Shown piece after piece: positions 13,377 through 14,614 of a DNA stretch of 64,000 nt. Source of the stretch: an uncultured Gemmatimonadales bacterium (GTDB lineage Bacteria > Gemmatimonadota > Gemmatimonadetes > Gemmatimonadales > GWC2-71-9); the NCBI GenBank assembly GCA_963777835.1, contig CAVZRK010000006.1, forward strand, positions 1,186,155 through 1,250,154, written 5' to 3'. Position 1 is the first letter of the stretch, and each line of letters starts with the position of its first letter. The notes under the pieces were generated by a model, which had not been told where the DNA came from, did not search any database, and saw only the letters and a list, made by a program, of their open reading frames with translations. Position numbers and translations under genes: made by a program.

Positions 13377-14614
<1,238 letters not shown>

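Follow-up and report, generated by a model that had tools for sequence, protein, structure and literature searches.

A frame break beside an octanucleotide array in a Gemmatimonadales pdhC gene: a probable consensus error next to a member of a dispersed family of short tandem repeats

Introduction

Is a gene of central metabolism that changes frame beside an array of eight-nucleotide repeats switched on and off by slippage at those repeats, truly broken, or intact in the organism and broken only in the assembly? This question is raised by the dihydrolipoamide acetyltransferase (E2) gene, pdhC, at 13377–14614 on the plus strand of the window, by which we mean the whole stretch of 64,000 nucleotides analyzed here (G+C content, 69.7%), placed in the Gemmatimonadales by protein matches. 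The gene has an ATG at 13377 and a stop codon at 14612–14614, and its length of 1238 nt (2 mod 3) leaves it frame-broken. It contains three tandem octamer units, CGGGGCAG CGGGGCAG CGAGGCAG, at 14065–14088 on the plus strand, which are translated as AGQRGSEA(G), part of a variable loop in the catalytic domain. An earlier note on this DNA had described both the broken frame and the three-unit array, and rightly so; it had also placed the frame change inside the array and proposed a contingency switch driven by slippage or, alternatively, a polymorphism within the population or an assembly artefact at the repeat. Phase-variable contingency SSR loci, with tetra- to octanucleotide tracts in ORFs, occur in Haemophilus, Neisseria, and Moraxella (see PMC7383803 and PMC2651432). 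The pdhC gene resembles these loci in holding an in-ORF tandem repeat whose unit length is not divisible by three. We therefore located the lesion and compared the array with those of related genomes, and we describe the repeat family to which the array belongs.

Results

Position and size of the lesion in pdhC

The pdh cluster of the window has the order lipA, E1 alpha, E1 beta, E2, and lpd, which is identical in the sister species, a member of the Gemmatimonadales with 93.5% nucleotide identity over E2. Translation of pdhC in the N-terminal frame ended in ...EALNSAGQRGSEAGRRFPSMTS followed by two stops, and translation in the C-terminal frame read ...AKISFNDIVMKATAAALK... and stayed open to the gene end. 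In tblastn the gene was split into a segment in frame 3 (13377–14099) and a segment in frame 2 (14069–14611). A repaired E2 protein used as a query, which in the first search was the version repaired by removal of 8 nt, retrieved thousands of homologues, the best being 92% identical (400–413 aa), and the E2 homologues carried the Pfam domains Biotin_lipoyl, E3_binding, and 2-oxoacid_dh. The N-terminal frame of pdhC tracked its relatives through GSEAG, the last codon of which was GGG at 14088–14090, and homology in the C-terminal frame restarted at AAG 14093, which encodes the K of KISFND; the lesion therefore lies within 14089–14092. It was seen in the DNA alignment as a one-base deficit on the plus strand at 14089–14092, where the window has GGCG versus GAACA in the sister species and blastn placed a 1-nt gap at 14091. 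The sequence following the array was GAACAAAG in the sister species and G-GCGAAG in the window. Homology in the N-terminal frame ran through all three octamer units, and the frame change is not inside the array, where it had been placed.

Because the lesion is a single absent base 3′ of the array, the repair is the addition of 1 nt, which gives a protein of 413 aa. The earlier note had pointed out that removal of 8 nt restores the frame as well as addition of 1 nt does, and this arithmetic holds. It had also taken the eight residues that this removal leaves between LN and K as about the usual E2 spacing, a value at odds with the 11 residues found in the nearest relatives. In the protein alignment, these nearest relatives (P0005, P0007, and P0008) had EALNSAGQRGSEAG-T-KISFND, and others had EAGKRGSGEAVKISFND and similar sequences. 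The repair by removal of 8 nt was rejected, since it makes the loop three residues shorter than that of any close relative in this alignment. Both 'PK' and 'AK' were found at the post-array position among E2 relatives. Candidates for the original sequence at 14089–14092 are GGGG, with one G dropped to leave GGG, and GGGCCG, reduced to GGGCG, and the original codons would plausibly be GGG GCG AAG or GGG CCG AAG. Three intact units together with a simple one-base miscall in a short run of G or C, an outcome that had been set against the contingency proposal, is thus the outcome favored by the data.

Other frame breaks in the window

The 64 kb contained at least seven frame breaks when E2 is counted, at least six of them in other conserved or essential genes. 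Breaks were sought by tblastn and blastn over the 21 kb syntenic with the sister species, and the remaining ones by a whole-window codon-usage frame plot and three-frame reading followed by Pfam. On the plus strand, an OMP beta-barrel gene had a single-base deficit at 9110–9118 (minus 1 at 9116), and lpd (E3) had a single-base insertion at 15314–15318, where tblastn passed from frame 2 to frame 3 at 15318 and blastn gave a gap at 15316 (plus 1); both genes were otherwise 87–98% identical in protein to those of the sister species. A frameshift in accA on the plus strand was placed approximately at 28535–28560 (about 28545), with Pfam ACCA positions 2–219 in one frame and 218–310 in another, and the sequence before the break read ...LMLENSIY. 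The other breaks were on the minus strand. In atpD, at approximately 40755–40775 (about 40765), the nucleotide-binding and C-terminal Pfam domains were in different frames, with ...DSSSRIL before the break. In mlaE, at approximately 48170–48200 (about 48190), Pfam MlaE positions 2–35 and 43–197 were in different frames, and reading of the frames suggested that a second break is possibly present near 47728. A sigma-70 family gene broken at approximately 48620–48660 (about 48640) read ...EEIQQAL and then ATLPPRDARVLRLYFGL; in Pfam, its regions 1.2 to 3 were matched in a single frame, whereas region 4, which is out of frame, gave no match. A possible fourth frameshift of the syntenic block, in lipA at 10469, was not counted, as it falls in an unconserved N-terminus and may reflect a different start codon. 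The breaks of the window included both insertions and deletions, were mostly outside homopolymers, and in no case fell at an octamer array. These counts suggest that, over the whole contig, an indel error occurs about every 8 kb.

Selection downstream of the E2 and lpd breaks was not relaxed. For these two downstream segments, dN/dS against the sister species was 0.062 and 0.051, respectively, compared with 0.053 and 0.073 for the intact neighbors E1 alpha and E1 beta. The joint loss of ATP synthase beta, AccA, and PDH E2 and E3 in a free-living bacterium does not seem credible to us. Because of the many unrelated single-base breaks, the constraint on the genes, and the implausibility of this joint loss, we infer that pdhC is very probably intact in the organism and that its break is an error of the consensus, an indel like the others found across the window, in an assembly rich in such errors. 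The suspicion of an assembly artefact voiced in the earlier note was therefore sound, and the repeat as its cause was not, with at least six other single-base breaks unrelated to octamers.

A real one-base deletion, in the form of a very recent inactivating mutation or of a minority allele picked by the assembler, would make pdhC a fresh pseudogene. Short runs of G/C and tandem repeats are enriched for true indels, and the site adjoins one of each; sequence alone does not tell a recent mutation from an error, a dN/dS of 0.06 being compatible with a very recent event. Neither the truncated E2 ORF nor E1 beta had a match when looked up as an exact product, and contig and metagenome scans returned only the sister species (about 92% amino acid identity); no same-species sequence was found for direct comparison of the site. 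However, on this reading six or more further genes in 64 kb, all of them conserved or essential, would have to be freshly broken, and there was no other sign of decay, E1 alpha and E1 beta being intact and strongly constrained. We consider a real deletion unlikely.

The octamer array in the E2 genes of relatives

The identical 24-nt array was present in frame in eight independent assemblies of the sister species (L001–L006, L008, and L009), where it encodes ...SAGQRGSEAG-T-KISFND; with the window, the copy number of the loop array was three in nine of nine assemblies from two species. A more distant relative, L007, had a diverged three-unit loop array in frame, and at about 60% protein identity the same E2 loop held four units in L016 and three units in L026, both in frame. 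The comparison of two versus three units in related pdhC genes, which the earlier note had named as a check, gave three units conserved in frame in the sister species. The octamer array of E2 codes for a surface loop (AGQRGSEAG) in the ordinary way, and is not a frame-toggling switch.

According to the contingency proposal, gain or loss of 8 nt by slipped-strand mispairing would toggle pdhC, and the window would represent a three-unit OFF state. Removal of 8 nt does restore the frame, and the copy number of a second array, in the E2 linker, varies over evolutionary time (window, 9.1; sister species, 4.4; L007, 8.0). However, three units are the in-frame state in all eight sister assemblies; in the window itself all three are translated in the right frame and the break, a single base, lies outside them; and the two-unit product would have the shortened loop that was rejected above. 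Besides its invariant copy number and the position of its break, pdhC differs from known contingency loci in its short tract and in its role in core metabolism, as the gene encodes a housekeeping enzyme and neither a surface nor a restriction-modification function. Phase variation of pdhC is therefore very improbable. Programmed recoding, in which a −1 ribosomal frameshift at GCA GGG CGA would give full-length E2 from the gene as written, agrees with the required shift of −1 and with the G-rich, structured region of the site, but is equally hard to believe, given that 14085–14095 holds no X XXY YYZ slippery heptamer, that the relatives examined all encode the loop directly with none out of frame, and that six or more unrelated sites, among them lesions of the +1 type, would call for the same account.

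Octamer arrays across the window

The octamer belongs to a family that is dispersed over the window. When a 16-mer of the octamer was searched with up to two mismatches, 15 matches were found versus 0.53 expected, and none of 100 shuffles reached 15. A Chi- or KOPS-like skewed word was rejected as a description, because isolated octamers numbered about six versus roughly 12 expected from composition, the latter being a rough estimate. Rfam at the gathering threshold gave tRNAs only in the window and no match at any array. An eight-tRNA cluster of the window at 49534–50437 includes a tandem duplication of 119 nt (2.5 copies, 88% matches), the source of three near-identical tRNAs at 50124–50436.

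Three of the arrays were absent from the earlier note. The first, (CTGCCCCG)~9 at 13680–13749 on the plus strand (TRF period 8, 9.1 copies), is C-rich on the sense strand and encodes the Pro/Ala-rich E2 linker after the lipoyl domain. The second is an inverted pair on the plus strand at 16049–16134, in which three copies of GAGGCAGG (16049–16082) are paired with 3.8 copies of CTGCCCCC (16101–16134); the pair fills the spacer from the lpd stop codon to the next ATG, and its hairpin had a predicted energy of −61.2 kcal/mol (z = −5.7). The third is a short array at 47539–47556, which together with the array at 47632–47666, right after the mlaE stop codon, makes up two arrays that are G-rich in the mRNA sense in the mlaE–mlaF spacer (47539–47666, minus strand); this spacer folded with z = −5.0.

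Downstream of an M23 peptidase gene, a terminator-like hairpin lies between a G-rich array at 32519–32549 and a complementary C-rich arm at 32616–32634 (32519–32634, plus strand), and the region folded at −71.8 kcal/mol (z = −5.3). The string at 32522–32549 had been called almost the same as that of E2, which we confirmed: 32519–32552 equals E2 14062–14093 save for two extra bases, one G within the string and one C in its flank. A four-unit CGGGGCAG array at 37140–37174 on the minus strand, C-rich on the plus strand, lies in a divergent intergenic region. The arrays previously given at 37141–37172 and 47641–47664 were recovered at 37141–37173 and 47633–47665, on the opposite strand. With regard to G-quadruplex motifs, which take at least four runs of three or more Gs separated by short loops, the E2 loop array has three G-runs (GGGG, GGGG, and GGG), and the arrays at 32519 and 37140 have four or more.

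Other repeated sequences adjoin some of these arrays. A 54-nt element, CCTCACCCCCTGTCCCCCTCTCCACNATGTGGAGAGGGGGGACG..., occurs at 32642–32695 and 47563–47616 with 91% identity; it contains a perfect internal palindrome, each copy is beside octamer arrays, in the mlaE–mlaF spacer flanked by the two arrays, and it may be a REP- or MITE-like unit. A 28-nt inverted repeat at 36222–36249 and 37108–37135 (GATCGCTGTCATTGCGAGGAGGCCCCGC and its reverse complement, 93% complementary) adjoins the array at 37140, and the 858-nt segment between its arms contains a putative CPBP/CAAX-protease-like ORF.

Seven- and eight-nucleotide arrays across the Gemmatimonadales

A TRF survey was made of 82 non-redundant loci, consisting of the window and 81 related Gemmatimonadales loci (L001, L007, and L011–L089; 1.4 Mb including redundant copies). 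Arrays of at least three copies were found 127 times at period 7 and 51 times at period 8 in these 82 loci; the numbers for periods 10, 11, and 13 were 8, 2, and 6. The array units were lineage-specific, for example GATTGCG, CGGGATG, GGCTATT, and GACGGCTG. A reverse-complement partner array was present within 400 nt for 77 of 176 arrays, versus one same-orientation partner and three in a permuted-unit control. Five of six intergenic pairs that were folded had z values of −5.0 to −8.7, and the sixth, from L011, had z = −0.6. Example arrays are those of L071 (11259–11337), L086 (11342–11500), L031 (4083–4189), and L032 (12 arrays); across the loci, the hairpin-forming pairs were often in the E2–lpd spacer. 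The unit CCCCAGT of L033 (11371–11404) is what we take to be the cyanobacterial STRR1 consensus.

The spacer from lpd to the next gene held a complementary-array hairpin both in the window and in L011 (12673–12760), with different unit sequences; the structure therefore predates the species split, its arms drifting together. The sister species L001 (12671–12693) had only the G-rich half of this pair.

Complementary arms within E2 genes

Within E2, the linker array lies 315 nt upstream of the loop array and is complementary to it; the RNA MFE structure of 13655–14100 paired the linker and loop arms (z = −3.5). The pattern recurred in other genomes. Among the E2 genes examined, a strong inverted repeat (score of at least 16) joining two flexible regions was found in 16 of 81, compared with one of 77 upstream and one of 73 downstream neighbor genes. 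The arms were mostly in linker 1 and linker 2, and in the clade of the window in linker 1 and the catalytic loop. Their units differed by lineage, as in L071 (CGGGAAA and TTTCCCG) and L039 (GACGGGCG and CGCCCGTC). Two-arm E2 genes were observed in L071, L039, L072, L051, L082, L061, L073, L068, L013, L026, L016, L001, and the window (13680–13749 and 14065–14088). In a cross-genome permutation, 17 of 81 genomes, versus about 0.8 expected, had an own-genome complementarity of the arms that reached the 99th percentile of the values for mismatched genome pairs. These results raise the possibility, which we put forward tentatively, that the E2 loop array takes part, as one of two arms, in a long-range pairing of nucleic acid conserved across the Gemmatimonadales, in which the units vary by lineage and the arms stay complementary.

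Discussion

The frame break of pdhC is a cautionary case: where the unit length of a repeat is not divisible by three, a frameshift next to it mimics a contingency locus, and it is the comparison with relatives and the tally of other breaks that here point to a consensus error. The gene should be annotated as an intact E2, and any pseudogene or frameshift call made from this window warrants suspicion.

The octamer array itself has counterparts among the known bacterial repeats. Cyanobacterial STRRs (short tandemly repeated repetitive sequences) repeat a 7-bp unit in tandem and often fold into hairpins in the spacers of co-transcribed genes, hupS–hupL for example; a role in transcript stability or translational coupling has been proposed, and their function is not known (PMC2670836). 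The arrays of the window and its relatives likewise consist of dispersed short tandem units, with hairpin pairs in the lpd–next gene and mlaE–mlaF spacers and, in relatives, in E2–lpd spacers. They differ from STRRs in their host, which belongs to the Gemmatimonadota, in being octamers in the window and heptamers in many relatives, in their lineage-specific units, and in lying also inside the coding linkers of E2. The octamer arrays are thus, by analogy, comparable to STRRs and not a strict member of that group, which comprises heptamers of heterocystous cyanobacteria.

Long SSRs with units of 5–11 nt are known from prokaryotes (Mrazek et al. 2007, as summarized in PMC4679880), and TAACTGA heptamers from Beggiatoaceae, Cyanobacteria, and Bacteroidetes; polymerase slippage has been proposed as the origin. 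There, as in the Gemmatimonadales loci, tandem arrays of 7–8 nt exceed those of neighboring periods. However, the TAACTGA repeats are in direct orientation, immediately precede start codons, and have the same sequence in different taxa, whereas the units described here are lineage-specific and occur mainly as inverted pairs. REP/REPIN hairpin doublets form one sequence family mobilized by RAYT transposases (PMC3116915). Dispersed intergenic inverted doublets with strong hairpins are common to REPINs and to the present arrays, but the arms in the Gemmatimonadales are tandem arrays, and the unit varies from site to site. The dispersed arrays exceed chance and the intergenic ones can form hairpins, as in dispersed tandem repeats of the STRR and long-SSR type, a known kind to which the octamer family adds a new example. 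A literature search confined to one collection found no reports of tandem repeats for Gemmatimonadetes or Gemmatimonadota, and our results extend STRR-like or long-SSR arrays, as hairpin-forming inverted pairs, to this phylum.

The same repeat system that builds hairpins in operon spacers also serves as coding sequence for the linkers and a surface loop of E2, with two intragenic arms that co-vary between lineages. This two-arm arrangement, which occurs with different units in many lineages, is mildly novel and unexplained. If the pairing is true, it could reflect selection for an mRNA stem enclosing the PSBD-coding segment, for example one controlling translation or decay of the pdh operon. 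It could otherwise reflect a self-perpetuating DNA process, in which template switching between quasi-palindromic arms together with slippage would shape the protein linkers. Should the pairing of the E2 arms prove functional, protein linkers would here have their sequence constrained by the structure of RNA or DNA, which would be unusual.
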